Below, piece after piece: positions 24,976 to 63,244 of a DNA stretch of 64,000 bases. A program made the translations under genes and the position numbers. This stretch comes from Mytilus trossulus (taxonomy: Eukaryota), in contig NW_026963294.1 in the NCBI RefSeq assembly GCF_036588685.1, forward strand, positions 124,001 through 188,000, given 5' to 3'. Position 1 is the first letter of the stretch, and each line of letters begins with the position of its first letter. The notes below the pieces were generated by a model that searched no databases, was not told the origin of the DNA, and worked only from the letters and a program-made list of their open reading frames with translations.

Positions 24976-25669
24976 GATGGGCGTTAATATTGATTTACTT
25001 ATAGGGTCTTTGCATCGGAACTAAACACATTTATAAAAAAACAGTTGTTGGCATGACACAGGTTATGTTCTTCTCATATATGTTATGATGGTATGATACT
25101 AAACCCCTAACGGGAAAGAGTGTGCCTGATGTACATATGATGAAATCATAATCTTTCATTCAGTTTAATTGAAGTCTGGAGCTGGCATGTCAGTTAATTT
25201 CTAGTAGTCTGTTGTTATTTATGTATTATTGTCATTTTGTTTATTTTCTTTGGTTACATCTTCTGACATCAGACTCGGACTTCTCTTGAACTGAATTTTA
25301 TTGTATGTATTGTTATTCGTTTACTTTTCTACATTGGCTAGAGGTATAGGGGGAGGGTTGAGATCTCACAAACATGTTTAACCCCGCCGCATTTTTGCGC
25401 CTGTCCCAAGTCAGGAGCCTCTGTCCTTTGTTAGTATTGTATTATTCTAATTTTAGTTTCTTGTGTACAATTTGGAAATTAGTTTGGCGTTCATTATCAC
25501 TGAACTAGTAAATATTTGTTCAGGGGCCAGATGAAGGACGCCTCTGGGTGCGGGAATTTCTCGCTACATTGAAGACCTGTTGGTGACCTTCTGCTGTTGT
25601 TTTTTTACTATGGTCGGGTTGTTGTCTCTTTGAGACATTCCCCATTTCCATTCTCAACATTTCCATTTT
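24976..25669 (+). mobile_element. Non-autonomous retroposon family 1, 694 bp
   Basis: Interrupts integrase KWAF|NPP and is flanked by ATTC. Its 3' end ...acattccccatttccattctcaa recurs at 27784-27836, 43416-43600 and 60848-60928. Confidence 0.85.
25336..25426 (+). ncRNA. Putative P5-type twister-like ribozyme
   Basis: GGCUAGAGGU-AUA-GGGG-GA-GGG...UAA-CCCC-GC-CGCA/UGCG-CCUG-UCCCAAGU-CAGG-A-GCCUCUGUCC. Confidence 0.7.
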
Positions 25670-26432
25670 ATTCAACCCTCCTGCCGCGTCACACTTTGGA
25701 GGCGTGAGGGAGAGATTAATAAGATCAGTACGAAAGTTGTTATATTCTGTCATGCAAGAGCAGAGTCTTGGATTGAACAATGAAAATTTAAATACATTGT
25801 TTTGTGAAGTGGAAGCAATCTTGAATAACCGTCCGATTTCTGAAGTATCTGAACACGTAGACGATTTAAAGGTGCTTACTCCGAATCATCTTCTCTTATT
25901 AAGACCTGGTGAATACTTTCCTCTAGGAACTTTTTGTAAGACAAACAATTACGTAAGAAGACGTTGGCGACAAATACAATATCTAGCCGACATTTTTTGG
26001 AAGAGATGGACTCATGAGTATTTGCCTTTATTACAAAGTAGGCAAACGTGGAACTCTGAGAAGCGAAACTGGAAAAAAGGAGACATTGTATTGATCCAGG
26101 ATAATACACCGAGGAATCTTTGGAACTTAGGAAGAATATTTGAAGTACTAAAGAACAAGTCGGACAATGTTCGTATAGTGAAACTAAAAACATATTTAAC
26201 AACTTTATTACGACCAGTCGCAAAGTTGTGTTTGGTATTAGAAGCTGACATTTACACTCATAGTTTGCACTTGTTGTGTTAGAACAGTAGCTTGTGTTTG
26301 AAAGTACTTTGTTGAATAAATGGACTATATATAAGTTTAGTTTAGAGATTGTCACTTAGATTGAGAAATTATTTGGCCTCCTTATAATTTTTGATAATTG
26401 AGTTCTTTAAGACCACAATTAAGGGGCTGGAA

Positions 26433-26971
26433 TGTAGCGTCCAAATTTGAAAACAAAAAAAATTGTTGCCTATTGTTGCATTTTTTGGTAATTAGTGACA
26501 TTCTATTTTGAGATAAGTTACTTTCCCTTTACTTTAATGAACCCTTTCAGGGAATTTGCACGAAACGTGCTTGGTGAAAATCTTTGATTATGATGAAAAT
26601 AAGGAATATACTAGAGTCAACCAATATGGTATGTTTCTTTTATTTAATGCAGATAAAGTATCTTTCATGTTTAAAGTTAGAAATTTTGAGTTTAATTGAT
26701 GTAAAACTGATAAAACTTGACCTTGATAATTTGGCAATTATTTACCGTAAATGTTCATAATATTACATTTTTTAAAGAGAACAAGTGTATGTTACTACCG
26801 TAAATGTTATGATAGTTGCACTTTTGTATTGTATTATAATTCACAAAATGTTAGTTTTGATAGTAGAATTAAGTGTGTTTTATCTTTTATTTTGTAGTTA
26901 ATCTTTTCGTACACTTGAATAAAGAGAATTGAACGGAAGGAATTATTATTTTATTTGGTATAGACATCATA
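26433..26971 (+). repeat. 3' LTR of BEL/Pao element
   Basis: Follows the PPT and matches the 5' LTR. Confidence 0.92.
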
Positions 26972-29600
26972 CTACGACACAAAAAGCATACAATCACAGT
27001 AGATGTGGAGTATACGTCAACGTGTAAACAGCAACCCTACGACACAAAAACATACAATCAAAGTAGATGTGAAGTATACGTCACCATGTAAACAGCAACC
27101 CTACGACATAAAAACATACAATCAAAGTAGATGTGAAGTATACGTCACCATGTAATCAGCAACCCCACGACATAAAAACATACAATCAAAGTAGATGTGA
27201 AGTATACGTCAACGTGTAAACAGCAACCCTACGACATAAAAACATACAATCAAAGTAGATGTGAAGTATACGTCAACGTGTAATCAGCAACCCTACGACA
27301 TAAAAACATACAATCAAAGTAGATGTGGAGTATAACGTCAACGTGTAAACAGCAATCTTACGACACAAACACATGCAATCAAAGTAGATGTAGTATACGT
27401 TAACGTGTAAACATCAACCCTACGACATAAAAACATGCAATCAAAGTAGATGTGGAGTATAACGTCAACGTGTAAACAGCAATCCTACGACACAAAAAAA
27501 CATACAATCAAAGTAGATGTGAAGTATACGTCAACGTGTAAACATCAACCCTACGACATAAAAACATGCAATCAAAGTAGATGTGGAGTATAACGTCAAC
27601 GTGTAAACAGCAATCCTACGACACAAACACATGCAATCAAAGTAGATGTAGTATACGTCAACGTGTAAACATCAACCCTACGACATAAAAAACATACAAT
27701 CAAAGTAGATGTGAAGTATAACGTCAACGTGTAAACAGCAACCCTACGACATAAAAAAAACTTACAATCAAAGTAGATGTGAATAGATTGAGAATGGAAA
27801 TGGGGAATGTGTCAAAGAGACAACAACCCGACCAAAATACGTCACCGTGTAAACAGCAACCCTACGACACAAACACATGCAATCAAAGTAGATGTAGTAT
27901 ACGTCAACGTGTAAACAGCAACCCTACGACATAAAAACGTACAATCAAAGTAGATGTGAAGTATACGTCAACGTGTAAACAGCAACCCTACGACATAAAA
28001 ACGTACAATCAAAGTAGATGTGAAGTATACGTCAACGTGTAAACAACAACCCTACGACAAAAAAACATACAATCAAAGTAGATGTGAAGTATACGTCAAC
28101 GTGTAAACAGCAACCCTACGACATAAAAACATACACTCAAAGTAGATGTGAAGTATACATCAACGTGTAAACAACAACCTTACGACATAAAAACGTACAA
28201 TTAAAGTAGATGTGAAGTATACGTCACCGTGTAAACAGCAACCCTACGACACAAAAAAACATACAATCAAAGTAGATGTGAAGTATACGTCAACGTGTAA
28301 ACAGCAACCCTCCGACATAAAAACGTACAATCAAAGTAGATGTGAAGTATACGTCACCGTGTAAACAGCAACCCTACGACATAAAAACACGTACAATCAA
28401 AGTAGATCTGAAGTATACGTCAACGTGTAAACAGCAACCCTACGACACATAAAAACATACAATCAAAGTAGATGTGAAGTATACTTAAACGTGTAAACAG
28501 CAACCCTACGACATAAAACATACAATCAAAGTAGATGTGAAGTATACGTCACCGTGTAAACAGCAACCGTACGACATAAAAACGTACAATCAAAGTAGAT
28601 GTGAAGCATAAGTCACCGTGTAAACAGCAACCCTACGACACAAAAAAACATACAATCAAAGTAGATCTGAAGTATACGTCAACGTATAAACAGCAACCCT
28701 ACGACACAAAAAAACATACAATCAAAGTAGATCTGAAGTATACGCCAACGTGTAAACAGCAACCCTTCGACACATAAAAAACGTACAATCAAAGTAGATG
28801 TGAAGTATACGTCACCGTGTAAACAGCAACCCTACGACATAAAAACGTACAATCAAAGTAGATGTGAAGTATACGTCACCGTGTAAACAGCAACCCTACG
28901 ACATAAAAACGTACAATCAAAGTAGATGTGAAGTATACGTCACCGTGTAAACAGCAACCCTACGACATAAAAACGTACAATCAAAGTAGATGTGAAGTAT
29001 ACGTCACCGTGTAAACAGCAACCCTACGACATAAAAACGTACAATCAAAGTAGATGTGAAGTATACGTCACCGTGTAAACAGCAACCCTACGACATAAAA
29101 ACGTACAATCAAAGTAGATGTGAAGTATACGTCACCGTGTAAACAGCAACCCTACGACATAAAAACGTACAATCAAAGTAGATGTGAAGTATACGTCACC
29201 GTGTAAACAGCAACCCTACGACATAAAAACGTACAATCAAAGTAGATGTGAAGTATACGTCAACGTGTAAACAGCAACCCTACGATACAAAAAAACATAC
29301 AATCAAAGTAGATGTGAAGTATACGTCACCGTGTAAACAGCAACCCTACGACACATAAAAAACATACAATCAAAGTAGATGTGAAGTATACGTCACCGTG
29401 TAAACAGCAACCCTACGACATAAAAACATACAATCAAAGTAGATGTGAAGTATACGTCAACGTGTAAACAGCAACCCTACGACATAAAAACATACAATCA
29501 AAGTAGATGTGAAGTATACGACAACAAATATAGAGAAACCAAGCGACACACATACTATATGGTGAAAGTATATGTAAAGTAAATTACAATTTTCATACAG
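26972..29600. repeat. 64-bp satellite, subtype B (right part, about 40 units)
   Basis: Resumes at the TSD; identical units at about 28800-29250; decays at about 29520-29600. Confidence 0.95.
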
Positions 29601-30788: not shown

Positions 30789-30806
30789 TGGTGCCGTGAC
30801 CAGGAT
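30789..30806 (+). promoter_or_regulatory. Primer binding site, tRNA-His type
   Basis: TGGTGCCGTGACCAGGAT lies 2 nt after the LTR; the tRNA-His PBS is TGGTGCCGTGACTCGGAT. Confidence 0.8.
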
Positions 30807-30882
30807 ATCTGATCCCTCAGGTTTTGGTTTGAATATCTTAATTACATTTATTTTTGATTTTGTTTAAATTTTGATTTTTAAA

Positions 30883-32731: not shown

Positions 32732-33794
32732 TAGATGTGCCTTGATTTGACTAGGTTAATTCCCCTTAATTTGGACAGATTAATTATTTAGTATTTAAAT
32801 GTTTATTTTAAGTTTAATTTTATTTAAACACAGTAAGATAAAAGTAAGGATTGTTAATTTAACTGTTTTAGTATTTAACTTTCGATGTTTTTATAATGTT
32901 TTATGAATATTTATTTATTCAACTTTTCTTCAGTACCGTTTCAGTTACAGTTACCCTGTTTAATGACAAGTTTAGAATATCATTTGATATTCAGTCGGAG
33001 TCGGCCTTGCACAGGCCTCCAAATACTCGCCGGACTGTATCAGTTCACTTGAGTTAGAGTTAGCCACCACTTCGGTGCAGTTCGCCAGAGTTAGTCACCC
33101 CTTTATGGTGCAAATTTCACTACTTTAAAACACAACGCGAAGCAAATTTACTTAACTTTTAAGACTAGCTCTGGGAACACTTCATTTTCATTTTAACTTT
33201 GAAATAATTACTCTATTTTTGACTCCTGTTTATATCCGACTTTGTTTAATACATGCAATTATTGTACTTTTGTGAATAAAATATAGTTTCGTTTGATTCA
33301 TTGTCTGTTGTTCAGCCATAATCTGATATCAGGTATCCCAATGGTCGAATAGGGGCGAAGTACTGGCCGCTACACGTCCCGGAAGGTGTCGTCACCGACC
33401 CCCTCCGTTACAGTTAACATTACGATAAAACTTCTTACATTAGCATTTGTTAGAACATTTAAACCATATTCTCTTAATAATGTTAAAAACATACATTTAC
33501 AATGGAATTTTCATTTTGGTTGATGATCTGAATTTACACTAGGTCGGTCCAAACGGTTAAAAAGATATGAGTACAGTGATTCTGCATACTAGTCTTCATG
33601 TTAGTTTATAATCAGTATATCAACTTATCACTCATTCTTATGTTATATGCAGTTGATTGTATGCATGGGTTTTCAGTGGCAAATATCACACGCATACCTA
33701 CGACTAGAACATGTTAATGTGATTGATATGATAATAAACCCTCTTTGTATAGACCTAATCATATATGTAAGAATTTCGAGATGTGACAAATAAA

Positions 33795-34180
33795 AATAAG
33801 GAGATCGTGTATGATTGACAATGAGACAACTATCCATCACAGTTCAAATGAAGTGGATGTAATTACATGATTGCTGATTAAATAATTACTAATCAGATGT
33901 AAGAAATCATAAGTCACCTTACGACCTTTAACAATGAGCAAAACCTATACCGTATGGTAAGTTATAAGAGATATCAAAAAATGTAAAACAATTCAAGCGG
34001 GAAAACAAACGGTCGGATTATGATAAAACAATAAACGAACAAACAAAAAATATGATAGACATCAAATAACAGATATCACTAGATTGCAAGTTCCTGACCT
34101 CGGACAGGCACATATAGAATCTTTACGAGCGCCAAACCCTCGCCAAACCGGAGAGAGAACTAACTGTCAACATCAGTTGG
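33795..34180 (-). mobile_element. Degenerate retroposon family 2 copy
   Basis: tatgattgacaatgagacaact...ttcctgacctcggacaggcac. Confidence 0.65.
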
Positions 34181-36859: not shown

Positions 36860-37070
36860 ATATAGGAAGATGTGTTATGAGCGCCAATGAGACAACTTTC
36901 ATCCAAGTAACAATTTATAAAAGTGAACCATTATAGGTCAAGGTACGGCCTTCAACACAGAGCCTTGGCTCACACCGAATAGCAAGCTATAAGGGACCCC
37001 AAAAATTACTAGTGTAAAACTATTCAAACGGGAAAACCAAAATATAAATATAAAAACGAGAAACGAGCAT
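36860..37070 (-). mobile_element. Retroposon 3' fragment (family 2 variant)
   Basis: Reverse complement matches 45420-45525; also similar to 62545-62640. Confidence 0.7.
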
Positions 37071-39023: not shown

Positions 39024-41009
39024 AACCGGTCTTTTCGGAGCCAAATATACTACCCCTTACGAAAGTCATTGTCCTTGATTGACGATTTTGTCCATTTTCT
39101 TGGAAATTTATCTTTAAACTATAATATATAGAAAGAAGCTCTACGGAGCAAAAACGATCAACCCAATAAGATCTACAAACAAGTCAGCACAGACGACTCT
39201 TGGAAGGAGTGGTTGCCCTTAAATGATGATAAATTTGAGATTAACGGAAACTTTACAAAATAGATAGAAAAAAAAGAGACAATGATTAGCAAATAAGACA
39301 TGATCAACAAATTAGCAAATAAGAAAGAAAAAAGAGGACCAATGGTTGATGGACTTCTTATAGCGTTAAATGATTGTTTTTTACAAATTTTGACTGTTTT
39401 TACCTTAAATCTTAAACTATTATACTAGATAGAGGGAAACTTTGAACAACGCAAAATTTCGATCTATTTATAATAGTTTTAAGACTTTCACCTTAAATCT
39501 TGAAACTATTATAGATAGATCGAAACTTTGAATAACAAAAACGATCATCAACGCAATGTTTGAAATTGTTGCTTACTATCATGAAAACACTAAACAATAG
39601 ATATAAACTCAGTCTAGAAAAAAAATGATCAGCAAGATCGGTTTTTAGCCCACAGATATTCTTTTTATCATGAATATGCTTATTGTAATGTATCTATTTC
39701 ATGCAATAATACCAAGCGAACAATACAAAAAACAGCCTCTAGTTTCAATATTGTCTGCATCGGCTTGTTAACTTGAAAAAAAAGTCATTAAAGAACCATA
39801 TAACGATATAGGTTTATTATGACCTTTTTTAAGTTAACACCGAAGAGTTGTGAAAAAGGTGACAAAGTAATGTGCTAGACCTACGTGTATTCAGCAAATA
39901 ACAATAAATAACAAGCTCTTGGCTTGGGACAGGAATATAAATAATTTGGTGAGGTTGTACATGTTAACAAGCGTCCAACCATCACCGAGTCCGGGAGCTG
40001 TAACAGCATAACTTACGTTACAGAAATGAGACTTGTTTGAACATAACAATATCAATCAGATAAAGCATTATGCTGATTAAAAAAGATACAAATAAGGAGA
40101 TTTTTCTTATGTCGTAATTATAGTTCGGCAAAGTCGATACCAAATGGTAATATAGATAATAATTGTCTTACATATACAACAATTCTAATACAATTTATAA
40201 TTCTAAATATTTATCATTACGATAAATTCTAAACTTCTATGTATCTCTGACATATTGATTACCTATCACGATAAATTTGCGCATCTTTTCTTTCTTAATT
40301 ATTGCCATAGATCGTCAACATTCCTTCATTTTTAGAACACGGATTAGGAATTTGTAATTGAAACGTATGACACAAAATTCTATGCTAATAACACGTCATC
40401 AGTTTTTTTAGCTTGCTATTTATTAATTAATGAATTTAAACAATGCCAACTATTTCGACTGACGATATTCATAAATATGTTAACATTGTGTCTTACAAAT
40501 ATTACTTCCAAAAATAATGCTCAATCTATTTCTCATCGGGGATTGCTATAACAATTTAAATAAGTTAAAGTGAAGTGAAAACCATCCTGTTAAAAAGAAG
40601 TTTGAACTTTCGTACAAATAAAATCTCTGTTAGGTTGTTCATATCCCAAAAAAAAGATGAGAAATTACTTATAAACAAAGGGCTAAACTCTCATTATATT
40701 AAATACGGCACTACACGAAAAGGCAGATTTGCAACAATTTGGACAGTCATGTAAATCTTTGACAAATGTAACTACTTTTCTGCAAGATATCTTTGCGGAC
40801 CTGCTAATGTATATGTAAATGTATTATTCCTTTGACATTATTTAGGAGGTAGTCAAAGATATGCTAAAGATAATTATTTTATTTCCATAGCTTTAGTCAT
40901 TCTCCAAAGATATGTAAAGATAGGCCATAGATTTACATGCACTTTCCAAGATAGGAGATATATGCAAAGTTTAAAATTTGCATAACTGATTTACAGTGGT
41001 GTGGGCAGT

Positions 41010-41385: not shown

Positions 41386-43415
41386 CGTTTGTAACAGTAA
41401 ATTGATACTTTTTTTATAGCTTAAAGACACATAATGAATGGATTGATGGATTGATTTGTATAAACGTCCAGCTGCAAATGCTACATCAAACTCAGTTATA
41501 GGGAGAAATGCACTAATATAATAACACTGTACTATATTATAAGCAGCATTACTTTTTGTACTTCAAAATACGAAAAGAAACCGATGGAATTCAATGACAT
41601 CATATTTATTAGAATGAACTCTAAACCAGAATAAATAATCTAATGATCATATCGATCAAAGCGGTACGTTTTTTTTTTACCCAAGCTTAAGTACCAATAT
41701 TGGTGTGGACTTGGAAAAAGTTAGTTTAGTTTCTGCTTATTTGTGATCTTTTCTCATTTAAATCAAGAGAATAATTGAATAATTATTTTGTTCAATATCA
41801 CTTAAGCCAAGGCGTGTGTTTTCAATGTTATGCATAATCGTATGATTTGAAAATACACGAGAATGCACGTACATGTACATGTATTTTATCAGAATGGTTA
41901 TGATTACAATTGAAAATGCCTCATAATACAAAAAAGAAATAGTATCAAGTATCCCTCAATAAGTGGTAAATATGTCACTCGTGTGTAAATTAATGGATTT
42001 TCCCCGACTGTGAAATGGTCCATCTTTTAGCACTACAGGGTTCCTTAAAAGGAAAATCGTATATGTTAATTACCAAAAATGATCTTATAACGCTAATTGG
42101 GTATAATAAAATCCAGACGTTCTAAAGAGATTAATAATATAAACATGTACAAATCATGCAAATTATACGCAAGCCAAGAATATGGCAGATAAAGGCATCG
42201 GGATTATTTCTATAATTAAACATGCAGTTTGTATTCATGAAAATGAGTTAAACTTTGAAAAAGGCAAATAATTTAAAAGTTTACATGCTAGAAAATTACA
42301 GAAGAAATTAGAACAGTAGCCTTGTATCTTAATTCTGTTGAGGATAAACACCATTTCATATTTAAAAGTAGAATGTACATGTCCACGTTTTCAAGCTTAT
42401 TAACTAGAAATATGTTGAAATTATATACAGTAAAAGTATTTTAAAACAATTATCTTTTGTATATAAAACATGCATTCTCGTTTCCCCGCTTCTGATATAT
42501 ATAGCAGATTTCATTTTGATGCAAAGCAAATGATTTAACCTTTAACTTGGATATACTCTCTGTATTTCGTGTTTCAACAAGAATAAAAATGACCAACATT
42601 AATGGAAAAAAACCCATCAATTTCCATAATCTTCCTTCTACTATATTAATCTAATTATAGTCACATTTTCTTATCAAGATTAATAAGATTTAATTATTTC
42701 AAATTTATAAAATGTTGTTGCTGAATGGTGTAAATGTTAATCGCCGATATCGAAATATACCTCCATTTTGTCATAAGTAACAACATATTAAAATTTGAAA
42801 ACCTTTGGATGAAAGGTTCGTAGATTATCGAACGGAAACGATTGGAACAGCCCGCCCGCTCGTCTGCAGTACAACAATAAATCAATAACGGGACTGGAAT
42901 CCGTAAAAAAAAATAGCAAGTCATAAATAAATGTAAAATACACCCGGTTTACCGTCATCCTCATATATATGTCGTATACTTTATTTAAAACTGGTGTTTG
43001 TCTTTGAGTCTCTTTTTGTTTTTACTCAATGCCATCAGAAGTGTGTCGGCACTGATACAAGAAGACCGGGCGGAAGGACAGACATTCTGTATTTCTATGT
43101 TCCCATCGACGCGTCGCGTGGGAGACAAAAATACAACGACATCTTAAAATCATGTTCAATTTAGATTCATATTAATTTGCACTTTGGTCTTCGGGGATGT
43201 GTGTGTTTTTGGTGTTTTGAGTTAGACATGATGAACAGTCCTGGAACAGCTAGTTAAAAACGCACCTTTTCACAAAGTGGGCAGACAAAACGACCCACAA
43301 ACGATTAGCAAAGTTGACTTTTTGTGGGGGCATCTTGGTCACAAAGGCGTCAGAAAAAGCCCGAGAGTATTCACAATCTATTTTAAGGAGTTTTCTTAAA
43401 CAATTTGGAAATAAG

Positions 43416-43600
43416 TATGGCGTTCATTATCACTGAACTAGTATATACATGTATTTGTTTAGGGGCCAGGTGAAGGACGTCCCCGGGTGCGGAAATTTCT
43501 CGCAACATTGAAGACCTGTTGGTGACCTTCTGTTGTTGGTTTTTCTATGGTCAGGTTGTTGTCTCTTTGGCACATTTCTCATTTCCATTCTCAATTTTAA
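43416..43600 (+). mobile_element. Retroposon family 1, 3' fragment
   Basis: Matches 25485-25660. Confidence 0.85.
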
Positions 43601-43809
43601 ATATCTTTTTCATTCCGATGTAACTCGATTAAAAGTAAAAGTGTGTTAAGAAATTTAGGAATCTGGAGAAATGCCATTCGGTATCGTGTTTCTTGATATT
43701 AGTACACAGTTTTGCAAAGCTCTGATTCCATTAGGATTTGGCTATACTTTTTGGATTATAGCTCTTCATCTTTTATATAAGCTTTGGATTTCAAATATTT
43801 TGGCCACGA

Positions 43810-43853
43810 GCATCACTGAAAAGACATGTATTGTCGAAATGCGCATCTGGTGC
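43810..43853 (+). ncRNA. Minimal type I hammerhead of a second retrozyme family, core variant CUGAAAA
   Basis: gcatca CTGAAAA gaca tgtat tgtc GAAA tgcgca TC tggtgc. Confidence 0.75.
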
Positions 43854-44834
43854 AAGAAAATTAGTAACGTTAATTTTATTTGGAATACGAAGAAAAATTT
43901 CCCACTTGCAGGGGAACACGAAACTGCATTAAAAAAAAAAAAAAAAATAAAGAATAGAAAGAGAAAAAGATAGACTAACAGTTTAAGAATAAAGAATAGT
44001 GGGCCTCTAGAATATAAAGAAAAGAGAATAACATGCAAAATTTGTATAGAATACAGAAAACTATGGCGTAAATAATATTAAGAATAAAAGAACACCCACC
44101 TCCCTCCTTTTCTAGACCCTCTTTTATCATATATATTTTACTTTTGATCCTTCTCGGAACGCTCGGTTATTTTTTTAATTTGATCTACTTGAATCGTCTT
44201 TGAATTCTCATAGAATATGATGTGTGTCAACATTTTTTTTACTGAAAAATTGTAATAGTGATCAGGGGCATCCCAATATTTATCTTAGTTGATGAAAATA
44301 GCGACTGCAGTTTTTTGGAGCGCAAAACTTGTCCTAACAAACTATACCCTAATAAGTTGATGTATCACAGGAAAGCAGTATCTTACACCCCCCCCCCCCA
44401 AAAAAAAAACGAAAAAAAAACAACATCCCCCCACACACAAAATTACAATAAAAAAAAACGTTATTGCTAGTACAAATGTATCTGGACAATGACATGCGAT
44501 TCCCAATGCTAGTTAATACGGGTCCAGTACTAGTCCATAACTTGTGTGCATTGTTTAGTTGATACAATCGTGAAATGAGTGTGCGTCTCTTGCCAAAAGC
44601 AATTTACGTCAACATTTCTTTTTACATTTGATCCCATCATATTTTTGTAGCATTCTTTACAATGATTATTAATTTATGAATTAACACTTTGAATAGTTAT
44701 TTGAATATACAGGCATTTGCATTGATAGATTCTGCCAGATTTGCAACTTGCATAATTAACTAATTAAAAATTATAGTAATTAAATTCTACAGGTCACGCT
44801 TGGTACCGAAAGGACTAAAACTTCCATAGATAAG

Positions 44835-45282
44835 CCTACCCGGCCACGTCCACTTGTATTTTTTCTATCTGATGAGTTAGGCCTTTTTCAACTGATTTTT
44901 TTAGATTGTTCTTATGTTATACTGTTATACCACTGTCCCAGGTTAGGGGAGGGTTGGGATCTCGCTAACATGTTTAACCGCGCCACATTATGTATGTATG
45001 TGCCTGTCCCAAGTCAGGAGCCTGTAACTCAGTGATGGTCGTTTTCTTATGTGTTACATATTTGCTTTTCGTTCATTTTTTTACATAAATAAGGCCGTTA
45101 GTTTTCTCTTTTGAATTGTTTTACATTGTCTTATCGGGGCTTTTATAGCTGACTATGCGGTATGGGCTTTGCTCATTGTTGAAGGTCGTACGGTGACCTA
45201 TAGTTGTTAGTGTTTGTGTCATTTCGGTCTTTTGTGGATAATTGTCTCATTGGCAATCATACCACATTTTCTTTTTTATATT
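44835..45282 (+). mobile_element. Retroposon family 2 with a twister-like module at 44930-45035
   Basis: gggagggttgggatc...tttaaccgcgcc...gcctgtcccaagtcaggagcctg; 3' end ttgtctcattggcaatcataccacat. Related fragments at 19790-19860, 46895-47195 and 47700-47892. Confidence 0.8.
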
Positions 45283-48200
45283 TAAATTGAAGTTCAACCT
45301 GAATAGGTATTACAACATCGTTAACGGAGAAGTTGTATGTAAAAAAGATGTTGTATGATAGCCAATGGGACGAATAGGTACCAAAGCATGATGCGAGTTA
45401 AAGATTGAAAAATCAGAAATGTGCTGTTGAAGGCCGTACTTTAACCTATAATGGTTTAATTTTTGAATTGTTGTTTGGATGGAGAGTTGTCTCATTGGCA
45501 CTCACACCACATCTTCCTATATCTACCTGATATATTCATAGACACAGAGGCTTGTCACTTTTTTGTTTATCTTTTTATTGGAAAATATTCTTTAATATTT
45601 CAACTTATTTAGAGTTTTAAACGTTTATCAATGCGATTTGAATATAACGATAGTTCATGTATTTTGCCCCTCTTTCCTTTTCCCCGCCTGTATGAAAAGC
45701 AAGTACAATGATACATGTTTCCGACTCCACTGTTAAAGTACAAATGATACATGTAGTTATTTTTCGACTTTGCGTAAAATATTTTGAAGAAAGAAGTGCA
45801 AGATATTCCATTGTTCAAACACGAATCATATAACTGTCATTTCCGCTAAAACTATAAGTCTAGACTTCGTCATGTTGTACAGGGTACAATTGCCTTTTAT
45901 CTTTTAAAGATATGTTTCCATGGTTTTTTTTTATCTTGTATTGTGACTGTCATTTGTTTTTTGTGTTGTGTGTATAGTATATGTTGTGTAGACCCGTAAG
46001 TTTTTGAGATGCTGATCCAAGCCTAAAAAATGTCTTCTTGAATAATGTTAAAACAAAATGAATTTGTCACATCAATTCTTGTTATTTCAATTAAAAAAGT
46101 GTACAAAGTATATTATTATGTTAAATGTAATTATTGCCAAAAAAATAAAAAAAAATAAAAACTAAAACTTATTTGATCATGACAGACAAAATACGATTCC
46201 TGTCAAAGTACATATGAAAGCTCTAAAATTTTAGGATAGAATAGGCGATAAATGAGATATCGAATGACTAACAGTTCGACAAGTTGCTTGCTTTAAAAAA
46301 AGAAATGCAATCGTAAACCCAAATGCTTGTTTGGCATTATATATATATTAGATAATTGTTTAATAAAGATGTATTGTTTTATATTACTTTTGTTGTGCAT
46401 AAGAATTAGAAACTGACATTGCCTGTTTACTTCATGTAATACCGGCGTCACACATCAACGTATAGATCCGACGTACGTCGACCGTGGTAAAAAAATTCAT
46501 GCACGCTACCAATACGCTAGTAATTTTGATGCATTCAACCTGTCAATTATATCTGTATCGTGTGCACAACCAGCTTAAAGCGTGTATTGGGTGTGCGTAA
46601 AGCGTACCTAAGCGTTTCTCCTAGTCTTTCTACATTCCCAACTGCAGATCTGGGCCGGCTATATGTAAATGTTTGTCAATAAGTCTGTCACATTCGCCCG
46701 TCTCTTTACATGTTTACCAGTCCGTCTATGTTCACTAGCTTTGAAATAGCTTTCGGTAAGTGCGATTATTTTAGTGATTTGTGTCTATTGTTTTTATGTA
46801 AGTGATTATTGTGCACCGTAGCCATATTTTTAGGGACGCGAATTACAACTGATAGTTTACAGTTTTTTCTTGCGATGTGTTGTCTTTAAGGTTTGGTCCA
46901 TTTGGGAGGGTTGGGTTTATGGCCACCACATTGTTTATGTACCAATGTCCATTCTAAAGCCAGAAACATGTAGTACAGTGGTTGTTGTTCATAATTCATG
47001 TCGGTCAACTTTTTTTTCGTAAATTATTTTGTTATTAATAATTAAATGCTGTTTAGTTTTGTTTGATTTTTGTTTTTAAATCTTAATGGTCGGGGCATTT
47101 AATAGCCGACTAAATAGTTTTTTTTTCATTTTTGGAGGCCTTTAAAGACTTACTACCACGTCATTGTAACTCTGGTTTGTACTTGTATCATTAGTGCTGG
47201 ACCATGGTCGTTCCTATGTACCTTTGAGGCAGGCGGGATATTTTTGTAGATCTTGTACAGCTCAAACTAATGGGATTAGTTCCTGTACTTCTATGTCTAG
47301 TCCCATGTTGCATGCCAGTGGTTGGAGAGGGTGTAATATCTTCTGTAGGTTTGATGAAGTTTCAACCGTATCGGATTTCTTCTCCTGAATGAAAGCTTTA
47401 AGGCGACGAGTATCAGTTGTGTATGGAATGTGCCCTTAACGTGTCTCAAACGAATCTGTAGCGTTTTCAACGCTCGTGTAGCGTGAATATATGTGCGTGT
47501 AGTTTACAGGTATACGCTTGACAACCGCTTGAGCTGAATGAATTATTTTATGTTCCATTAAAATTTTCCTGAAATAAAAGCGTTCACCAAGCCTATACCT
47601 TTGCATTTCGACGTACTTCAAACTTATGGAACGCGGGTTTAAACGCTTGCGTAGCGTTCCTCTGGTGATCAACTAATTTACGCATACGATGATACGAACT
47701 TTGTTAATTTTCTTTTTTGACTGATTGTTTTTTACATTATCATTTCGGACCCTTTTATAGCCGACTATGCAGTACGTGCTTTGCCTGTTGTTGAAGGCCG
47801 TACGGTGACCAATAGTTTGTATTTCTGTGTTATTTTGGTTTCTTGTAGATAGTTGACTTATTGACACCAAACCATATCTTCTTTTTTATATTCGATATCT
47901 TATCGCCGACCTGGTTAGGTCTGCTAAAAATGCATTCATGATTTATTTTTAGGTTATCAGTCGTAATTAAATTGGCACATTTAATTGGTTGTTTCATTGC
48001 TTGAAGTATCATTTCTTACATCTGCATGGTCAAATGTGTATTTTTTTTAAATAAATTTTAGATTTAGATTTCAGTCACGGTAATTTTCCCCCCTTCATAT
48101 TGAATATCTATACTTATCAGTCGCATTTTAATGACGAAAAGGATTCAGAGGTTATTATGTGACCTCCTTGTTTTTCAAAAAAGTAAATAATGTTGCAATA

Positions 48201-53384: not shown

Positions 53385-53680
53385 CATCCCAGATTATCAT
53401 GATATAGGGTTGATGCTTACAAGAAAGCTATTGGACAAAAGTTCCAGATGGAGAAATTCAAGTCGACCCTTCGAATCCGTTAAGGACGCCATCATGATTC
53501 GGTTGACCAGTATGAAATATTTATTTCACAGATTACGACGGTATTGTTCCAATGATCGTAGCTGCATTCAAGTTCTCTGTTTTTCGAAAGTTACCTACTG
53601 AATTAGATGTATCACAGGGTTTGTACTAATACTATATGACTGGTTCACTTGTGGATCAGGATCTGCTTACTCTTTCAAAA
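53385..53680 (+). pseudogene. Decayed C-terminus and 3' UTR of a second Penelope-like RT
   Basis: GLMLTRKLLD/KFQMEKFKSTLRIR*GRHHDSVDQYEIFISQI aligns to LSRKLMNQGYVKERLVLFLKKFIGRYQDLVDKYSVSTSQI of the RT at 15460. Confidence 0.75.
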
Positions 53681-54004
53681 TATATTGGTTAAACGAAACC
53701 TGTGGAACAACTCTTTCCAGAATGCACTACAAGCAACTGACTTGTCATACACGTTACCGGAGTGAATATTTGGTGGAATAAAGTGTGATGTGTGAAAATA
53801 TAATTTTTTTACAGCATGGGGTCGGTTTAATATGCAAGGGTAGTAAATCGAACAAAACACCAAACCTGAGTTTTCCTCAGGTAAAAGTAACTGTTTGATA
53901 ACACACTCAAACAAACGAATATAAATCATGCATTATTAGCTATACATCAACGTTGAAAAATACAAATAAACTCATCAAAGATACCAGAACTAAATTTTAT
54001 ATAT

Positions 54005-54048
54005 ACGCCAGACGTGCGTTTCGTCTACAAAAGACTCATCAGTGACGC
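54005..54048 (-). ncRNA. Type I hammerhead with intact core, in retrozyme fragment 53970-54143
   Basis: gcgtca CTGATGA gtct tttgt agac GAAA cgcacg TC tggcgt. Confidence 0.8.
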
Positions 54049-54689
54049 TCGAATCCCAAAAAGTTAAAAATGCCAAATAAATTACGAAATTGAAGAGCAT
54101 TGAGATCCAAAATTCCTAAAAGTGTTGCCAAATACAGCTAAGGCAAAACATGAGTTGCAATTTAAAGTAAATGGCGGTCATGCTAAGTTATTAGAATGTC
54201 TGATATATTCAAATAGGATATTTATTTGGTAAACAAATTGTATAAACATTGAGTTTTGTCGGAAAAGACACCAGAATTTGCATAAACGTTTGCATTTTAA
54301 CAACCCCTATGCGAAAATGTGATTTTTCATGTCAGAATTTCAACATATAGAAATAAGTAATTTAGGTAAACAGCTTATACATATAGTCTTAATCCATTCT
54401 AAAAGATAACATTTTTCAAAAAAATGCTATCTTGAAGGTTTTTAAAAACTCATACCAAAAGAGGGGCGACAGATAGAAATGATTTCAACTTCGCCACTTG
54501 AACTATTGGTTTAATAGCCTCCTTGGGAGCAGAAATCCTAAATCAAGGAAATAATGATATCAAGTGTTCCAATGAGCATTTTTCTTGAAGGACAGATGTT
54601 GCCATATTTTTCCCTTTATGCGAAAAATTCAATATAAGTAATTTACAAAATTAATGATTTTATAAGTATATAGCTAGAATGACCCTTTG

Positions 54690-55022
54690 TGACAATTCTT
54701 TACATATTTCACTCAGAGGTAACGTCTTTATCCCCTGACCGTTTTTTTTTTTGGACTTTAACCTCCTTCTAATGTCAACATTTCATTTCATTTCATTTTC
54801 ATTTTTATGTAAAATTTCATAAAAATAACTTCCGGCATATCCATTCAAATCAATAACATGTTAACAATTCTTTACATATTTCACTAAGAATTAACGCCTA
54901 TATCCCCTGACCTGTTCATTGGACATTAACCTCATTTTAATGTCAACATTTCATCTTTTCATCAATAGTAAAATTTCAAAAAACTAACTTTCGGCCTATC
55001 CAATGAAATCAATAACATGTTA
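54690..55022. repeat. ~172-bp tandem duplication
   Basis: acaattctttacatatttcact...aatcaataacatgtta occurs twice. Confidence 0.8.
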
Positions 55023-56114
55023 CCAAGTCAGGAATATGACAATTGCTTTTCATTCGTTTGATATGTTTGAGCCTTTGATTTTTTCCATTTGATATGACAC
55101 TTCCGATCTGAATTTTCCGTTAAATTCGGTATTTTTTTTAAATTTTACTTTTTTTCAATCCCAATTTACAATGTATTTAAATGATAAATGGAAGTTGTAA
55201 CTTATCGGACTTTGGCATTATCTAGTACTTATAAAATATATAACACAACGGTGATGTCAATTCTAAAATAAGGTACATAATTGGAAAACGGGTAAGAATT
55301 TAAAGTTGTTTGATGGCCATATTAAACAATGTTTTCTTTGTAATAATACAAAATTGATATATGTAACAGAACAATTAAGTAACTAACTAAACACCATCTG
55401 ACACGATCAAAACTAAGAAAAAAGAAGAAAAAATGAATAAAATGATAACGAAATTTATTCCAAGTATGTCATCTTCGTGATCACTGTCACAATGTCTTTC
55501 ATCATAATTTACAACAATGCAATTTGCCACGTGATGCAAGGAAATAGTGATTCCAATATATGGAACAAGATGAACAAATGGTGCAGATACATTTACGTTT
55601 CTGAAGATAAGCATCACAATATAACATACACAGACAATTATCTTAATATAACATAATTGTAGAAAACTTCAAAATATCTCGTTGTTTTATATTTTAAAGT
55701 AGATACGGTGTAGGAATTTCTAGCTTCGGATACAAGAGGAATAGTTTTAAGCACGACGAGCATCAACTCAGTAAGAAAACACCGAAATGGCTATTTTAGT
55801 TTTGTCTTAATTAAAATGTCGGTCAGATACAAGATGGACACACTGAGATAAGAATCTTATTATCAAAACCATTCTACAACAATTCACAGTCATATATATT
55901 TATTACTTTAAGATACATTCTTTAAGTATTTGTATCTCCAATCCATCAATTCTCTGTCAGGAAACATGTTGTTTTATTTCAATTTCATAATAAGGACAAA
56001 TAATAAGCGACTATGTGTCTTCATAGCAAGGATCATACCTTAGTAATTGAAACGCATGTTAAACGTATGTTAGTCATTAACTAGTTATCAAAGGTACCAG
56101 GATTATAATTTGGT

Positions 56115-56158
56115 ACGCCAGACGCGCGTGTCGTCTACATGAGACTCATCAGTGACGC
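56115..56158 (-). ncRNA. Type I hammerhead, GAAA>GACA variant
   Basis: CTGATGA gtct catgt agac GACA cgcgcg TC. Confidence 0.75.
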
Positions 56159-58244
56159 TCATATCAAAATATTTATAAAGCCAAACAAGTACAAAGTTGA
56201 AGAGCATTGAGGATCCAAAATTCCAGAAAGTTGTGCAAAATACGGCTAAGGTAACACGATATCAGATACTCGCAACTTTTCCTCATAAGTTCGTGAGCAT
56301 TCATAAGTGGTGGTCATAATAAAACTTCCAAGAAATACATTTAACCTATTTTCATCGGGGATTGATAAAGCAATTTATCAAAAATTAAATTGATGAGAAA
56401 AAATATCCTGTTATGAGGAAGTTGAAACTTCTGTACTGATGAACTATCTTAATTTTTGTTAATATTTAGACAAATATATTACAATTTACTCATCACAGGT
56501 TCATAACGATTACTTTCATCAAATAACATGACAGCATCCGTGCAAGTGTATTATAAAGCTTACTACCATTTCAACATATTTCTAAAAGGTGACAGAATTT
56601 ACAATTGTTCATTGTTATGTCTCAATTGGTTATTGTTTCAAAAAATTCATTAAAAGCAACATGAGTAAGTTATTGTGGTAATGAAAAATATTGGAATCAT
56701 ACTCAAAGGAACATAATTTTGTTATTGAAACGCATGTTATAAATATCTTAGTTCATATCACGTTATCAGATATTCGCAACTTGTCCCTTTTGAGTGTTTA
56801 TAAGATGTGTCTATAATAAAACTTCCACGAAAAACACTTAACCTTATTTACATTGGGGATGGATATAACAAGTTGTGAGAATTTATTATTGACGAGAAAA
56901 ACATCCTGTTAAGAAGGAAATATTTATTATTAACGAGAAAAACATCCTGTTAAAAGGGTAATGATTATTATTTTGTTAAAATGTAGACAAATAAATTACA
57001 ATTTGCTGATAGAAGTTCATAACGCTTATGTCAATCAAATATAACATGACGAAATCCCCGAAAGTTACGTTTGAAGCGTACTGTCAGTTCAACCTACTTC
57101 CTAAATGTTGTAGAATCTACCAATCTTTATTTTTATTATTCAAATGGTTTATTGTTTCAAGATTGATAATTGAAATAAGTTGTTATGAAAATCATTTGAA
57201 ACATACTAAATGAAAATTATGTCACACATTTTCAATTTTTTTCAAAACATGATATATACAAAATTATGAAAGTCTACAGGTCGGTGCCTCTTTTGTCTTA
57301 ATTAAAGTTTCGGAGATAGTAGAGAGATGTTTTCATATATTTGTTTAATCAGTCAATTGTGATAGTCTATGTATCTGTTCGTGTCATATGATAACGTTAT
57401 CAGTCAATTGTGATAGTTTGTGTATCTGTCCGTGTCATATGATAACGTTATCAGTCAATTGTGATAGTATATGTATCTGTCCGTGTCATATGATGACATT
57501 CAAGTTCAGAAAATGAGGACATCAACCCCATTGTGGTTTAACCGTTCACGCGTTCCCATGAATAGTCTAGTTGAACAAAATGAGAATGTAAAGTTGTTTG
57601 ATGGCCATATGGAACAATGTGTTCTTGGTAATAGTACAAAATTGATATCTGTAACAGAAAAATTAAGTAAGTAACTAATCACCATCTGACACAATCAAAA
57701 CTAAGAAAAAATAGGAAAAAATAAATAAAATTAAAACAACTTTTATTCCAAGTATGTCATCTTCGTGATCACTGTCACAATATCCTTCATCATAATTTAC
57801 AACAATGCAATTTGCCTCGTGATGCAAGGAAAAGACAATTCCAATATATTGAATAAGATAATCAAATGATGCATATACATATACGTTTCTGAAGTTTAGC
57901 ATCACAATATAACATACAAAGACAATTATCTTAATATAACATAATTGTGGAAAACTTCAAAATATCTCGTTGTTTTGCATTTTAAAGTAAGGAATTTCAA
58001 GCTTCGGATACAAGAGAAATAGTCTTAGGCAAGAATAGACTCAATTCAGAAAGAAAACACCGAGACGGCTGTTTTAGTTTTGTCTTAATCAAAATGTCGG
58101 TCAGATACAAGATGGACACACTAAGATAAGAATCATATTATCAAAACCATTCATAGCTAGGATCGTACCTTAGTAATTGAAACGCATGTTACTCATAGGT
58201 TAGTCATTAACTAGTTATCAAAGGTACCAGAATTATAATTTGGT

Positions 58245-58288
58245 ACGCCAGACGCGCGTGTCGTCTACATGAGACTCATCAGTGACAC
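58245..58288 (-). ncRNA. Type I hammerhead, GAAA>GACA variant
   Basis: Same core as the copy at 56115. Confidence 0.75.
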
Positions 58289-60278
58289 TCATATCAACAT
58301 ATCTATAAAGCCAAACAAGTACAAAGTTGAAGAGCATTGAGGATCCAAAATTCCAAAATGTTGTGCAAAATACGGCTAAGGTAACACGATATCAGATATC
58401 CTGTTATGATGAAGTCGAAACTTCTGTACTGATGAACTATCTTGATTTTTGTTAACATTTAGACAAATATATTACAATTTACTCATCACAGGTTCATAAC
58501 GATTACTTTCATCAAATAACATGACAGCATCCGTGCAAGTGTATTATAAAGCTTACTACTATTTCAACATATTTCTAAAAGGTGACATAATTTACAATTG
58601 TTCATTTTTATGTCTCAATTGGTTTTTGTTTCAAAATATTCATTAAAAGTATGTTATTGTGGTAATGAAAAATATTGGAATCATACTCATAGGAACATAA
58701 TTTTGTAATTGAAACGCATGTTATAAATATCTTAGTCCATAACACGTTATTAGATATAAGCAACTTGTGCTATTTTAGTATTACAAGTTGTGTCTATACA
58801 AAACTTCCAAGAAAAACACTTAACCTTATTTACATTGGGGATGGATATAACTAGTTGTGAGAATTTATTATTGACGAGAAAAACATCCTGTTAAGAAGGA
58901 AATATTTATTATTGACGAGAAAAACATCCTGTTAAGAAGGAAATATTTATTATTGACGAGAAAAACATCCTGTTAAAAGGGTAATGATTATTATTTTGTT
59001 AAAATGTAGACAAATAAATTACAATTTGCTGATAGAAGTTCATAACGCTTATGTCAATCAAATATAACATGACGAAATCCCCGAAAGTTACTTTTGAAGC
59101 GTACTGTCATTTCAACCTACTTCTTAAATGTTGTAGAATCTACCAATCTTTATTTTTATATATCAAATTGTTTAATTGTTTCAAGATTGATAATTGAAAT
59201 AAGTTGTTATGAAAATCATTTGAATCATACTAAATGAAAATTATGTCACACATTTTCAATTTTTTTCAAAACATGATATATACAAAATTATGAAAGTCTA
59301 GAGGTCGGTGCCTCTTTTGTCTTAATTAAAGTTTCGGAGATAGCAGAGAGATGTTTTCATATATTTGTTTAATTAGTCAATTGTGATAGTCTATGTATCT
59401 GTTCGTGTCATATGATAACGTTATCAGTCAATTGTGATAGTTTGTGTATCTGTCCGTGTCATATGATAACGTTATCAGTCAATTGTGATAGTCTATGTAT
59501 CTGTCCGTGTCATATGATGACATCCAAGTTCAGAAAATGAGGACATCAACCCCATTGTGGTTTAACCGTTCACGCGTTCCCATGAATAGTCTAGTTGAAC
59601 AAAATGAGAATGTAAAGTTGTTTGATGGCCATATGAAACAATGTGTTCTTGGTAATAATACAAAATTGATATCTGTAACAGAAAAATTAAGTAAGTAACT
59701 AAACACCATCTGACACAATCAAAACTAAGAAAAAATAGGAAAAAATAAATAAAATTATAACAACTTTTATTCCAAGTATGTCATCTTCGTGATCACTGTC
59801 ACAATATCCTTCATCATAATTTACAACAATGCAATTTGCCTCGTGATGCAAGGAAAAGACAATTCCAATATATTAAATAAGATAATCAAATGATGCATAT
59901 ACATTTACGTTTCTGAAGTTTAGCATCACAATATAACATACAAAGACAATTATCTTAATATAACATAATTGAGGAAAACTTCAAAATATCTCGTTGTTTT
60001 GCATTTTAAAGTAGATACGGTGAAGGAATTTTAAGCTTCGGATACAAGATAAATAGTCTTAGGCAAGAATAGCATCAACTCAGAAAGAAAACACTGAGAC
60101 GGCTGTTTTAGTTTTGTCTTATTCAAAATGTCGGTCAGATACAAGATGGACACACTAAGATAAGAATCATATTATCAAAACCATTCATAGCAAGGATCGT
60201 ACCTTAGTAATTGAAATGCATGTTAAACATATGTTAGTCATTAACTAGTTATCAAAGGTACCAGGATTATAATTTAGT

Positions 60279-60322
60279 ACGCCAGACGCGCGTTTCGTCT
60301 ACAGAAGACTCATCAGTGACGC
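60279..60322 (-). ncRNA. Type I hammerhead, fully canonical
   Basis: gcgtca CTGATGA gtct tctgt agac GAAA cgcgcg TC tggcgt. Confidence 0.85.
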
Positions 60323-63244
60323 TCATATCAACATATCTATAAAGCCAAACAAGTACAGAGTTGAAGAGCATTGAGGATCAAAAATTCCAAAATGTTGTGC
60401 AAAATACGGCTAAGGTAACACGATATCAGATATCCTGTTATGAGGAAGTTGAAACTTCTGTACTGATGAACTATCTTGATTTTTGTTAACATTTAGACAA
60501 ATATATTACAATTTACTCATCACAGGTTCATAACGATTACTTTCATCAAATAACATGACAGCATCCGTGCAAGTGTATTATAAAGCTTACTACTATTTCA
60601 ACATATTTCTAAAAGGTGACAGAATTTACAACTGTTCATTTATATGTCTCAATTGGTTTTTGTTTCAAAATATTCATTAAAAGTATGTTATTGTGGTAAT
60701 GAAAAATATTGGAATCATACTCATAGGAACATAATTTTGTAATTGAAACGCATGTTAGAAATCATAACACGTTATTAGATATAAGCAACTTGTGCTATTT
60801 TAGTATACAAGTTGTGTCTATACAAAACTTCCAAGAAAAACACTTAATAATAAAATTGAGAATGGAAATGGGGAATATGTCAAAGAGACAACAACCCGAC
60901 CAAAATAAAAAAATACAACAGCAGAAGGTTAACCTTATTTACATTGGGGATGGATATAACAAGTTGTGAGAATTTATTATTGACGAGAAAAACATCCTGT
61001 TAAGAAGGAAATATTTATTATTGACGAGAAAAACATCCTGTTAAAAGGATAATGATTATATTTTTGTTAAAATGTAGACAAATAAATTACAATTTGCTGA
61101 TAGAAGTTCATAACGCTTATGTCAATCAAATATAACATGACGAGATCCCCGAAAGTTACTTTTGAAGCGTACTGTCATTTCAACCTACTTCTTAAATGTT
61201 GTAGAATCTACCAATCTTTATTTTTATATATCAAATTGTGTATTGTTTCAAGATTGATAATTGAAATAAGTTGTTATGAAAATCATTTGAATCATACTAA
61301 ATGAAAATTATGTCACACATTTTCAATTTTTTTCAAAACATGATATATACAAAATTATGAAAGTCTAGAGGTCGGTGCCTCTTTTGTCTTAATGACAGTT
61401 TCGGAGATAGCAGAGAGATGTTTTCATATATTTGTTTAATCAGTCAATTGTGATAGTCTATGTATCTGTTCGTGTCATATGATAACGTTATCAGTCAATT
61501 GTGATAGTCTATGTATCTGTCCGTGTCATATGATGACATTCAAGTTCAGAAAATGAGGACATCAACCCCATTGTGGTTTAACCGTTCACGCGTTCCCATG
61601 AATAGTCTAGTTGAACAAAATGAGAAACATAATGGTTTATGTATAGTGAATCGGATATTATATTTCCCGTTCATCTATGAAGACAACCATCATTATAACA
61701 TTTCTAATAAAAATGTAGATGCAATTTAAATAGTAAACTATATCCTAATTCAAACCTATAAATATAAGTCAAGTGGGTTTTTTCACACACATCAGTTCAA
61801 TGTGTCACATTTTCAAACAGCATCACATTTACGATCATGGGGTGGTTCATTATGTGAAGTGAGTGATTGTAATTATCATGGTTATGAAATAATAGCGAAT
61901 AAGTTTAGTTAACTCAATTGCACATTAAAGCGCTCAACAGACAACATCATCCACTAGCAATCTGAAATATCTTATCAGGAAGAAAAACACTATGATTTTG
62001 AATCACAGACGAATACAAGAAATGTTTAAGCAAATCACGACGACCATTATCCGAATACTCGGATAATATTCTTAATAAATCAGACTATAGCATAGTTGTT
62101 ATTGTTGTACATTTTGTTCGACCTTGAAAACATGTATATACAATATATAAAGTACTACGTGACAAAGTTATAAGTTAAATAATTACTCATCATAACAGGA
62201 AGATAAAGAGTATAAACATAAGACGGTTTCCGTAGGTTACAAGTGTATACATTATATTCTTAACAGTATTCATTGTTTAAATTTTGGACGTAATATTTAG
62301 TAACTATATTATAGGTTGGAGAGGCAATGAAATTGTACACGTTTTATTTTAATCCCTCAATGCATACACACATCATGTTTAGAAACATTGAAAAGGGCAA
62401 GGGTTGCATATACTTTTCAAAAATAAATCATGTTTTGGATCTTGATAATGATGGTTGATTACTTTTTTGTAAAAGGGTTTTAGTTTTATTGATATTCTGA
62501 AAGTGTTTAAAAGGCTATTTTGAATGTCTTTTGTCAAAATCAGAGTGCAAATGAAACAACTCTCCATCCAAGTCACAATCTATAAAAGCAAACCATTTTA
62601 GGTCAAGGTATGGTCTTCAACACGGAGCCTTGGCTCACAACAAGCATCAAGTCATACCCCCTAGCTAGGTGTACAGGTAATTATTTTATGAAATTTTTAG
62701 ATATACTCATTAATCATTTCTGAGTTGGTTTTTTTTTTCTATTAATGTTTGAAAAAATCAAATTAACAAAAGCATCGAACTCCAACAGAAATTCAAAACG
62801 AAAAGTACTTTATAAAATGGCAAAATCAAAATCTTAAGCACAACATACAAATTGAAAACAACTGTCATAATCCTCACTTATTTACAGGAATTTCCTACTG
62901 TAGAAAATGAAGTATAGGTAACGTAATTTGTAGGACAACCAGATTGTACTGGTATCAACAGAGAGATTACCAAAGCTTACGACTAATCTTTCTAAGGCAA
63001 AGTTGTTTCTTTGTGTGCATGCATCTTGAAAATTGTAGGTTTATATAATTGAGAAAACATAAAAGAATTTAGGGATTGAAAACAATTAATTAAAATTTAT
63101 GAAACAATATGCAAAAATAACGCATTGCTGTTATCCAGATTAACTGTTCTAGTGCCGACAGCGAAAGTTACAAATTCAAATTATGGCTGTTCTCAATGCT
63201 CTTCAACTTTGTATTTGTTTGGCTTTTTCACGGTTTTGATCTGA

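Follow-up and report, generated by a model that had tools for sequence, protein, structure and literature searches.

The 64,000-nt stretch of the Mytilus trossulus genome analysed here (NCBI RefSeq assembly GCF_036588685.1, contig NW_026963294.1; hereafter the window, whose own coordinates are used throughout) carries a broken Penelope-like element (PLE) together with two families of short repeats, families 1 and 2, which the initial annotation had described as non-autonomous partners of that PLE. From window self-comparison, alignment of the copies to young family members and searches of the animal's own 1.3-Gb genome, we consider it highly probable that families 1 and 2 are the 5'-truncated tails of two coding PLEs of the Naiad group, here named B and C, each of which likely copied itself, and that these tails share a predicted P5-permuted twister ribozyme with the window PLE, named Naiad A.

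The longest family 1 copy (24980-25663, plus strand, ~685 bp) comprises the last 14 codons and the TAA of a reverse transcriptase (RT) frame (24980-25024) followed by 3' untranslated region (UTR), and is 94.6% identical to the young genomic copy L034. It is inserted in the integrase region of a long terminal repeat (LTR) retrotransposon relic. The copy at 43400-43600 (plus strand, 88.7% identical to B) consists of 200 bp of the 3' end and not of 185 bp. The remaining two are an 80-bp copy at 60850-60929 (minus strand), located in a tandem unit of ~2 kb, and a copy of ~55 bp at 27783-27839 (minus strand), located in a 64-bp satellite. For both of these, the empty sites reported in sister units are genuine: when the 80-bp copy is aligned with two empty sister units, 4 bp (TTAA) prove to be duplicated and two further bases to be present, and alignment of the ~55-bp copy with its empty sister units reveals ~3 bp of 5' overlap with the satellite. 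Family 2 is represented by a 5'-truncated 3' UTR of Naiad C at ~44837-45282 (plus strand, 92% identical to C), by a short and old family 2-like copy at 47703-47891 (plus strand, 79% identical to C), and by a 3'-terminal fragment at 19818-19860 (plus strand), which is 95% identical over 43 bp, these being the only bases that align well. Apart from small boundary shifts upon alignment, each copy terminates at the 3' end of its own family, as had been annotated. The twister-like module is indeed common to both families and the PLE at the level of the families, but it is present within just two of the seven listed copies, those starting at 24980 and 44837, the others (43400-43600 and 47703-47891 among them) being too short. 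Likewise, the reported pieces of PLE 3' end are present at 55021-55156 (plus strand) and 62752-62909 (minus strand), but as old A-like fragments that are merely 74% and 70% identical, respectively, to the window PLE. The family 2 copy at 44837 sits in a larger stretch (~43400-45420), of which duplicates exist at 10 further loci among the top matches (L041-44, L046-47 and L049-52); this is one family 2 insertion carried along within a bigger repeat. Fragments of an LTR retrotransposon, Bel/Pao-like by its motifs, extend over ~12200-13800, 18300-19250 and 22050-26300 and are broken up by PLE A, by family 1 and by further repeats.

Family 1 corresponds to the 3' UTR of B, a young coding Naiad element of ~4 kb. 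In a genome search with the longest window copy, 40 scored matches spanned the whole copy at 94-97% identity. The 694-bp and 448-bp copies are not full-length: 28 of the 29 other top family 1 loci that were fetched share sequence upstream of the point at which the window copy starts, and this extension amounts to 128 to >1500 bp in 26 of the 27 correctly oriented loci (the mis-oriented loci L014 and L023 were omitted from this count). A fixed 5' end of the families, at query positions 5 and 77 in the first genome searches, was rejected as merely the truncation point of the query itself. Nine longer stretches reveal the ~4-kb B element with an endonuclease (EN)-RT frame of ~1000 codons, and both L034 and L036 are ~4-kb elements with a pseudo-LTR (pLTR); in L034 a 5'-truncated 3' UTR copy in front constitutes the pLTR (4179-4716), followed by a body of 4.0 kb. 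Inverted pieces of B occur in L033 and L039, and a tail is present at five of 78 exact B 3' ends. The 995-codon frame of L036 ends with TAA and is open if four TGA codons are read through, all four of which are located at Naiad cysteine positions. The order of its parts (zinc finger, GIY-YIG-like core, KR-rich block, CxC, DKA and RT) is the Naiad order, and the frame combines an N-terminal GIY-YIG with RT in one open reading frame (ORF), CX2-5CxxC and CCHH fingers, a CxC linker and DKA. In a protein search with the B RT (480 aa), all 89 scored copies were open and 99-100% identical, and all 30 fetched B copies have TGA at codon DKA+8 and TAA as the stop. A hairpin resembling a selenocysteine insertion sequence (SECIS) lies ~50 nt past the stop codon at 25075-25139 (plus strand); it scores 22.6 bits (E 0.087) with the Rfam model SECIS_1, and its counterpart in L034 scores 32.7 bits (E 0.001), both below the 35-bit cut-off. 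No canonical hammerhead was found at E<=5 in an Rfam search of B only (L034 4150-8760). Past the fixed 3' end of B, at L034 4717-4790, tandem copies go on with a stretch of polypyrimidine-AG followed by a segment that is G+C-rich and hairpin-like, a candidate RT start signal. In four RNA runs, the pLTR was not found to be joined by GT-AG splicing to the AG that lies immediately beyond the B 3' end.

Family 2 corresponds to the 3' UTR of C, a coding sister Naiad of greater age. Its loci extend upstream to an RT frame that ends ~280 nt before the start of the window copy, and this coding piece runs directly into family 2 in 26 of the 30 loci found with it. The longer C copies L286, L292, L295 and L297 reach the N-terminal EN and are 55-65% identical to the B protein, and the GIY-YIG/finger, CxC and DKA motifs were seen in C copies too. 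Codon DKA+8 is TGA in all 13 parsed C loci (14 of 20 were tried), and a SECIS-shaped hairpin was recognised in C by pattern and fold. The C copies are 92-94% identical to one another, no intact frame was seen among the C copies examined, and C is older than B. Further C-like tails, older still and with decayed twister modules, are located at 10613-10985, 33790-34114 and 39907-39966 (all minus strand). Because copies extended in the 5' direction reach coding frames of their own, each family being the 3' UTR of its own Naiad, the proposed system of an autonomous PLE with two parasites is overturned, and we see hardly any room for doubt on this point.

The window PLE (14150-18170, minus strand) is a broken Naiad A with ORFs in which GIY-YIG comes first, followed by CxC, DKA and RT, with Cys at DKA+8. 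Its EN alone is recognised by Pfam (GIY-YIG, E 1.4e-7), and its RT is 39% identical to that of B. By eye, the A protein is near-identical to Naiad_Mgal as listed in the supplement of PMC8557442, and A thus represents a third Naiad of the window. Its 3' UTR contains an inserted 27-nt piece from the end of the hammerhead repeat family described below (14584-14610), and a sister repeat is free of this insertion. A fourth, Naiad-like family, D, with a twister variant of its own, is located at 36860-37067 (minus strand), 45425-45522 (plus strand) and 62543-62651 (minus strand); it follows the end of an RT frame in one copy. A SECIS-shaped hairpin was seen by eye in the family D locus L226. A fifth family, E, enters the module alignment as a single copy.

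Truncation was profiled in 1.0 Mb of unselected random DNA, where the hits that reach the 3' end number 32 of 38 for B, 21 of 38 for C, 11 of 19 for A and 25 of 36 for D, and where copy lengths form a continuum in all four families. Autonomous PLE A has the same truncation profile as the alleged parasite families. Independent 3'-anchored copies of at least 85% identity, counted in 1.2 Mb of such DNA, number 33 for B, 22 for C, 10 for A and 22 for D, which by simple scaling corresponds to genome-wide numbers of ~36,000, ~24,000, ~11,000 and ~24,000, respectively. The ORF is reached by only 4 of the 33 B copies; the other 29, and all 22 C copies, are UTR-only. This agrees with the published description of Naiads, in which 5' truncation is heavy and automated models pick up short, highly abundant Naiad 3' ends (PMC8557442). 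In keeping with the initial annotation, poly(A) is absent from 106 independent family 1 and 77 independent family 2 3' ends, and no tRNA gene or head was detected in the window or in any of five loci tested. Nor did terminal inverted repeats, Helitron ends or symmetric truncation, named there as contrary evidence along with a tRNA head, turn up. The fixed 3' end and ragged 5' ends suggest that a PLE-type RT/EN produced the copies by target-primed reverse transcription, as had been supposed. The 3' ends of A, B, C and D lie in T/A-rich tracts, and the targets are AT-rich, hardly ever (TA)n, and do not show a motif peculiar to any one family; since the insertion sites are alike across the four families, they do not tell which enzyme moved a given copy.

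The module shared by these tails is predicted to adopt a P5-permuted twister-like fold. In B it occupies 25341-25421 (plus strand), with a predicted cut at U25379^A25380 and with P1 replaced by two palindromes (25358-25379). A descriptor search of the window for P5-permuted twisters gave a single strict match (25349-25416), chance amounting to one strict match in 10 simulated windows. The C module at 44939-45024 (plus strand) has lost one G and carries one P2 substitution relative to the family majority, and it fails the descriptor, which is passed by eight distinct C variants. The A module (14263-14358, minus strand; predicted cut 14317/14316) has a 3-nt P2 strand and, in the young subfamily, a G.A mismatch in T1, and the fold of 23 of the 30 top A copies is identical to that in the window. 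P2, P4, both pseudoknots and the conserved active-site letters (AA at the cut, the GA step, L4 and the A after P4) are present, A being imperfect in P2 and T1, and the core agrees element by element, in circularly permuted order, with the table of the Schistosoma mansoni twister (PMC8501958). In an alignment of the five families, 90.7% of the cells are paired and nine pairs show two-sided changes, a level reached by none of 500 shuffles, whereas slid registers gave 31-48%; the rows are related families of one genome, and P5 of A and E is one column off. The T1 variants are GGG:CCC, AGG:CCU and GGU:ACC. By eye, the same fold can be drawn in the published bivalve Naiad_Mphi, Bpla, Scon and Mmer sequences, where P4, P2 and P5 have changed, as has the 2-bp pseudoknot (P4 and T2 occur as CC:GG, for instance), and it is absent by eye from about nine other Naiad 3' ends among those published, from oysters, pearl oyster, ark shell, hemichordates, coral, spiders and crab (PMC8557442). 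Based on this modelling, the twister fold appears well supported by structure, and we regard it as very likely correct; its presence in three families is best explained by common descent of the Naiad 3' UTRs. The 3' ends of Naiad_CGi, Sglo, Tgra, Pmar, Naiad-1_Skow and Naiad-1_Pfla, as given in PMC8557442, carry a different conserved, structured motif of ~100 nt just past the stop. It consists of an outer stem enclosing a 6-bp inner pairing, together with a palindrome that varies; it cannot be read as a twister, and is possibly another ribozyme.

The segment that takes the place of P1 holds two palindromes, whose self-duplexes together total -19 to -26 kcal/mol, a strength matched by 0-3 of 300 shuffles in five of the six sequences. 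In family D the palindrome variants GGGCCC and GGATCC differ at both symmetric positions. Since P1 is replaced by two self-complementary stretches, tandem RNA copies would pair, and the twister-type fold as modelled likely works only when two copies do so. The model follows the PLE hammerheads, whose palindromic stem serves for cutting as dimers (PMC6765202).

Four 2026 RNA runs with a related organism label were mapped to the B element and its pLTR-5' UTR. The element was covered along its length in all four. The UTR signal is two-stranded because of read-through from many B copies, and sense-biased RNA over the B ORF is clear in one run only (X22). Reads span the joint between 3' end and 5' UTR in three of the four runs, as expected from tandem copies, which exist as DNA too. 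Across the cut, three runs from a single study show a sense-strand depth step of +41 to +58% (antisense +8 to +12%; +10% in the fourth run), which was disregarded given that strand-specific steps of ~20-25% are present at other places. At the DNA level, four of 128 5' junctions lie within 2 nt of the predicted cut, a weak and post hoc observation, and 6 of 25 nearby 5' junctions fall into an interval of 14 nt at the cut (pooled p~0.02), this interval having been picked after looking. In unselected DNA alone the latter figure is 4 of 18 (p 0.07), with none from B or D. We take the excess of 5' junctions at the cut as a hint.

Together, these data suggest the following sequence of events. A tandem transcript (pLTR, 5' UTR, ORF and 3' UTR) would be translated, in B and C likely with UGA read as selenocysteine under control of the putative SECIS. 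The protein would nick AT-rich DNA and start to reverse-transcribe from a single fixed position inside the RNA; the fixed 3' end is the observed part of this step, and internal initiation is taken from Poseidon_Ac, for which it was shown at AT-rich targets (PMC11167929) and with which a fixed 3' end without poly(A) fits by analogy. Reverse transcription would usually halt within a few hundred bases, so that most copies are UTR-only. The twister-like fold lies 165-310 nt upstream of the 3' end, the place where other PLEs carry hammerheads, and two module copies in a tandem RNA may pair through their palindromes and cut out unit-length RNA. We tentatively propose that bivalve Naiads, for which a lack of ribozymes was reported, in tens of thousands of genomic copies carry a twister variant with two palindromes for P1 that acts as an obligate dimer and cuts only tandem transcripts. 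Such an obligate-dimer twister, sharing the UTR with a SECIS in families 1 and 2, might by convergence have taken the place that dimeric hammerheads hold in other PLEs, an idea that we put forward with reserve. Cleavage and dimer dependence of the modelled module, taken jointly, are conceivable but somewhat doubtful.

Several observations weigh against this interpretation. P1 is absent, and the 21-24 nt meant for it are unstructured as a monomer (0 to -0.8 kcal/mol). Rfam shows no twister in the window, the family 1 tail or L034, and a genome search with RF02684 gave no matches, its control being uninformative. The short P2 of A and its G.A in T1 have been mentioned; in addition, P4 is invariant among the five families, the lowest-energy two-dimensional fold pairs the cut site with T1 instead, the single copy of family E fails the palindrome test (53 of 300 shuffles), and the structure was derived from the very sequences tested, in five related rows. 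In none of the four RNA runs, all from fragmented libraries, do read ends accumulate at the predicted cut, and joints or circular junctions are likewise absent there; the search for RNA ends faces a background from thousands of read-through copies, and the same negative in RNA was reported for the active PAc hammerhead (PMC11167929). Moreover, Pfam recognises neither the EN nor the RT of B, whose assignment to the Naiads rests on motifs and similarity to A, and single copies may have been mobilised in trans by the enzyme of another family.

Of the alternatives, the one that survives best is that the tails derive from autonomous Naiads and the twister is active in monomeric form, with palindromes that are either expendable or used to package two RNAs on a dimeric RT. 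P1 has been reported as dispensable for twister activity (PMC11662667, PMC8501958), it has been predicted that the PLE protein forms dimers and aids its hammerhead (PMC11167929), and two helices of ~10 bp between two loops would pose a topological problem to a dimer. However, the symmetry through the centre of both stretches is preserved as their letters vary, which monomer cleavage leaves unexplained, and we judge this alternative unlikely. More improbable still is a mere likeness to a twister, the module being a structured RNA without catalytic activity that binds protein or makes the RT pause. The missing Rfam match and the RNA reads without a cut signal would agree with this, as would the finding that cleavage by the PAc hammerhead is unnecessary for insertion in vitro (PMC11167929); against it stand the letters of the catalytic site and both pseudoknots, which are kept with compensatory changes, and, as a weak point, the 5' junctions within 2 nt of the predicted cut. 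That families 1 and 2 are non-autonomous elements moved in trans by the window PLE, as might be suggested by their non-coding, 3'-anchored window copies with a module in common with the PLE, by the predominance of UTR-only copies in the genome and by the non-autonomous partners described for Chlamys (PMC8557442), has very little probability, given that both own EN-RT frames (that of B being open and nearly uniform), that the window PLE is itself broken, and that there is neither a fixed 5' end nor an RT-less master with a defined non-coding 5' end.

Repeats of a type I hammerhead family also occur, at 24228-24497, 53974-54149, 56079-56254, 58209-58384, 60243-60418, 63189-63324 and 63767-64000 (26-33 bits with Rfam Hammerhead_1, below the cut-off of 34 bits). 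Its copies mostly terminate at one common end, and it is this family, rather than families 1 and 2, that looks like the real non-autonomous partner; presumably it is the mussel retrozyme. Families 1 and 2 share their 3'-anchored, non-coding-looking copies with the Chlamys MRC1-like elements (PMC8557442) and the non-LTR hammerhead retrozymes (bioRxiv 10.64898/2026.07.22.740005), but unlike these they have coding masters of their own; the hammerhead repeat family of the window does belong in this class by its features.

Taken alone, the repeats are what known Naiad elements ordinarily leave behind: published work already covers Naiads, the short 3' ends typical of them and the selenoprotein type. 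The closest known systems are Naiad_Scon and Naiad_Mmer (Craig et al. 2021, PMC8557442), which likewise have N-terminal GIY-YIG and zinc fingers, a KR-rich block, CxC, DKA and a C-terminal RT, a size of ~4 kb, a pLTR, heavy 5' truncation and no canonical hammerhead, as well as UGA codons at the Cys that precedes GIY-YIG, at DKA+8 and within the zinc fingers; the SECIS that they carry past the stop has a SECIS-like hairpin as its counterpart here. As described there, selenocysteine-type Naiads come from two clams and two spiders, and the Mytilus entries Mgal and Mcor, which match family A, carry no comment on selenocysteine. No such Naiads from mussels were found in the literature searched, which misses most subscription papers, Craig et al. 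being the nearest; if the present reading is true, selenoprotein Naiads would be extended to mussels. A link between Naiads and twisters was not found in the same limited literature either: Craig et al. looked for hammerheads only, and the word twister does not occur in their main text, and PMC11662667, whose supplement includes candidate twisters from bivalves, states in its main text a focus on type P1. The Naiad module resembles twister type P5 (RF02684) in its UAA cut loop, P2, RC/GY pseudoknot, P3, P4, L4, A after P4, GA step and 3-bp pseudoknot, and in ends that open in P5; it differs in that the P1 hairpin is swapped for two palindromes, and in the absence of an Rfam match. The known twisters of eukaryotic retroelements (the Perere-3 LINE) are, unlike the Naiad module, of type P1 and located at the 5' end of the element. 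If true, the twister class would gain a P1-less, dimer-dependent architecture, and the RNA size of 80 nt makes the ribozyme idea testable in one gel. In its pLTR/3' UTR location and in the reduction of a core helix to a palindrome, the module is most like the palindromic, dimer-cleaving hammerheads of canonical PLEs (PMC6765202), from which it differs in belonging to another ribozyme class, in having two palindromes instead of one, and in that its cleavage is only predicted. From the lack of hammerheads in Naiads, Craig et al. (PMC8557442) argued that the ribozymes of PLEs may be mere passengers and dispensable; another ribozyme class, unrelated to the first, in the same place and with the same palindrome trick would, if confirmed, argue that PLE replication needs tandem-dependent RNA cutting.

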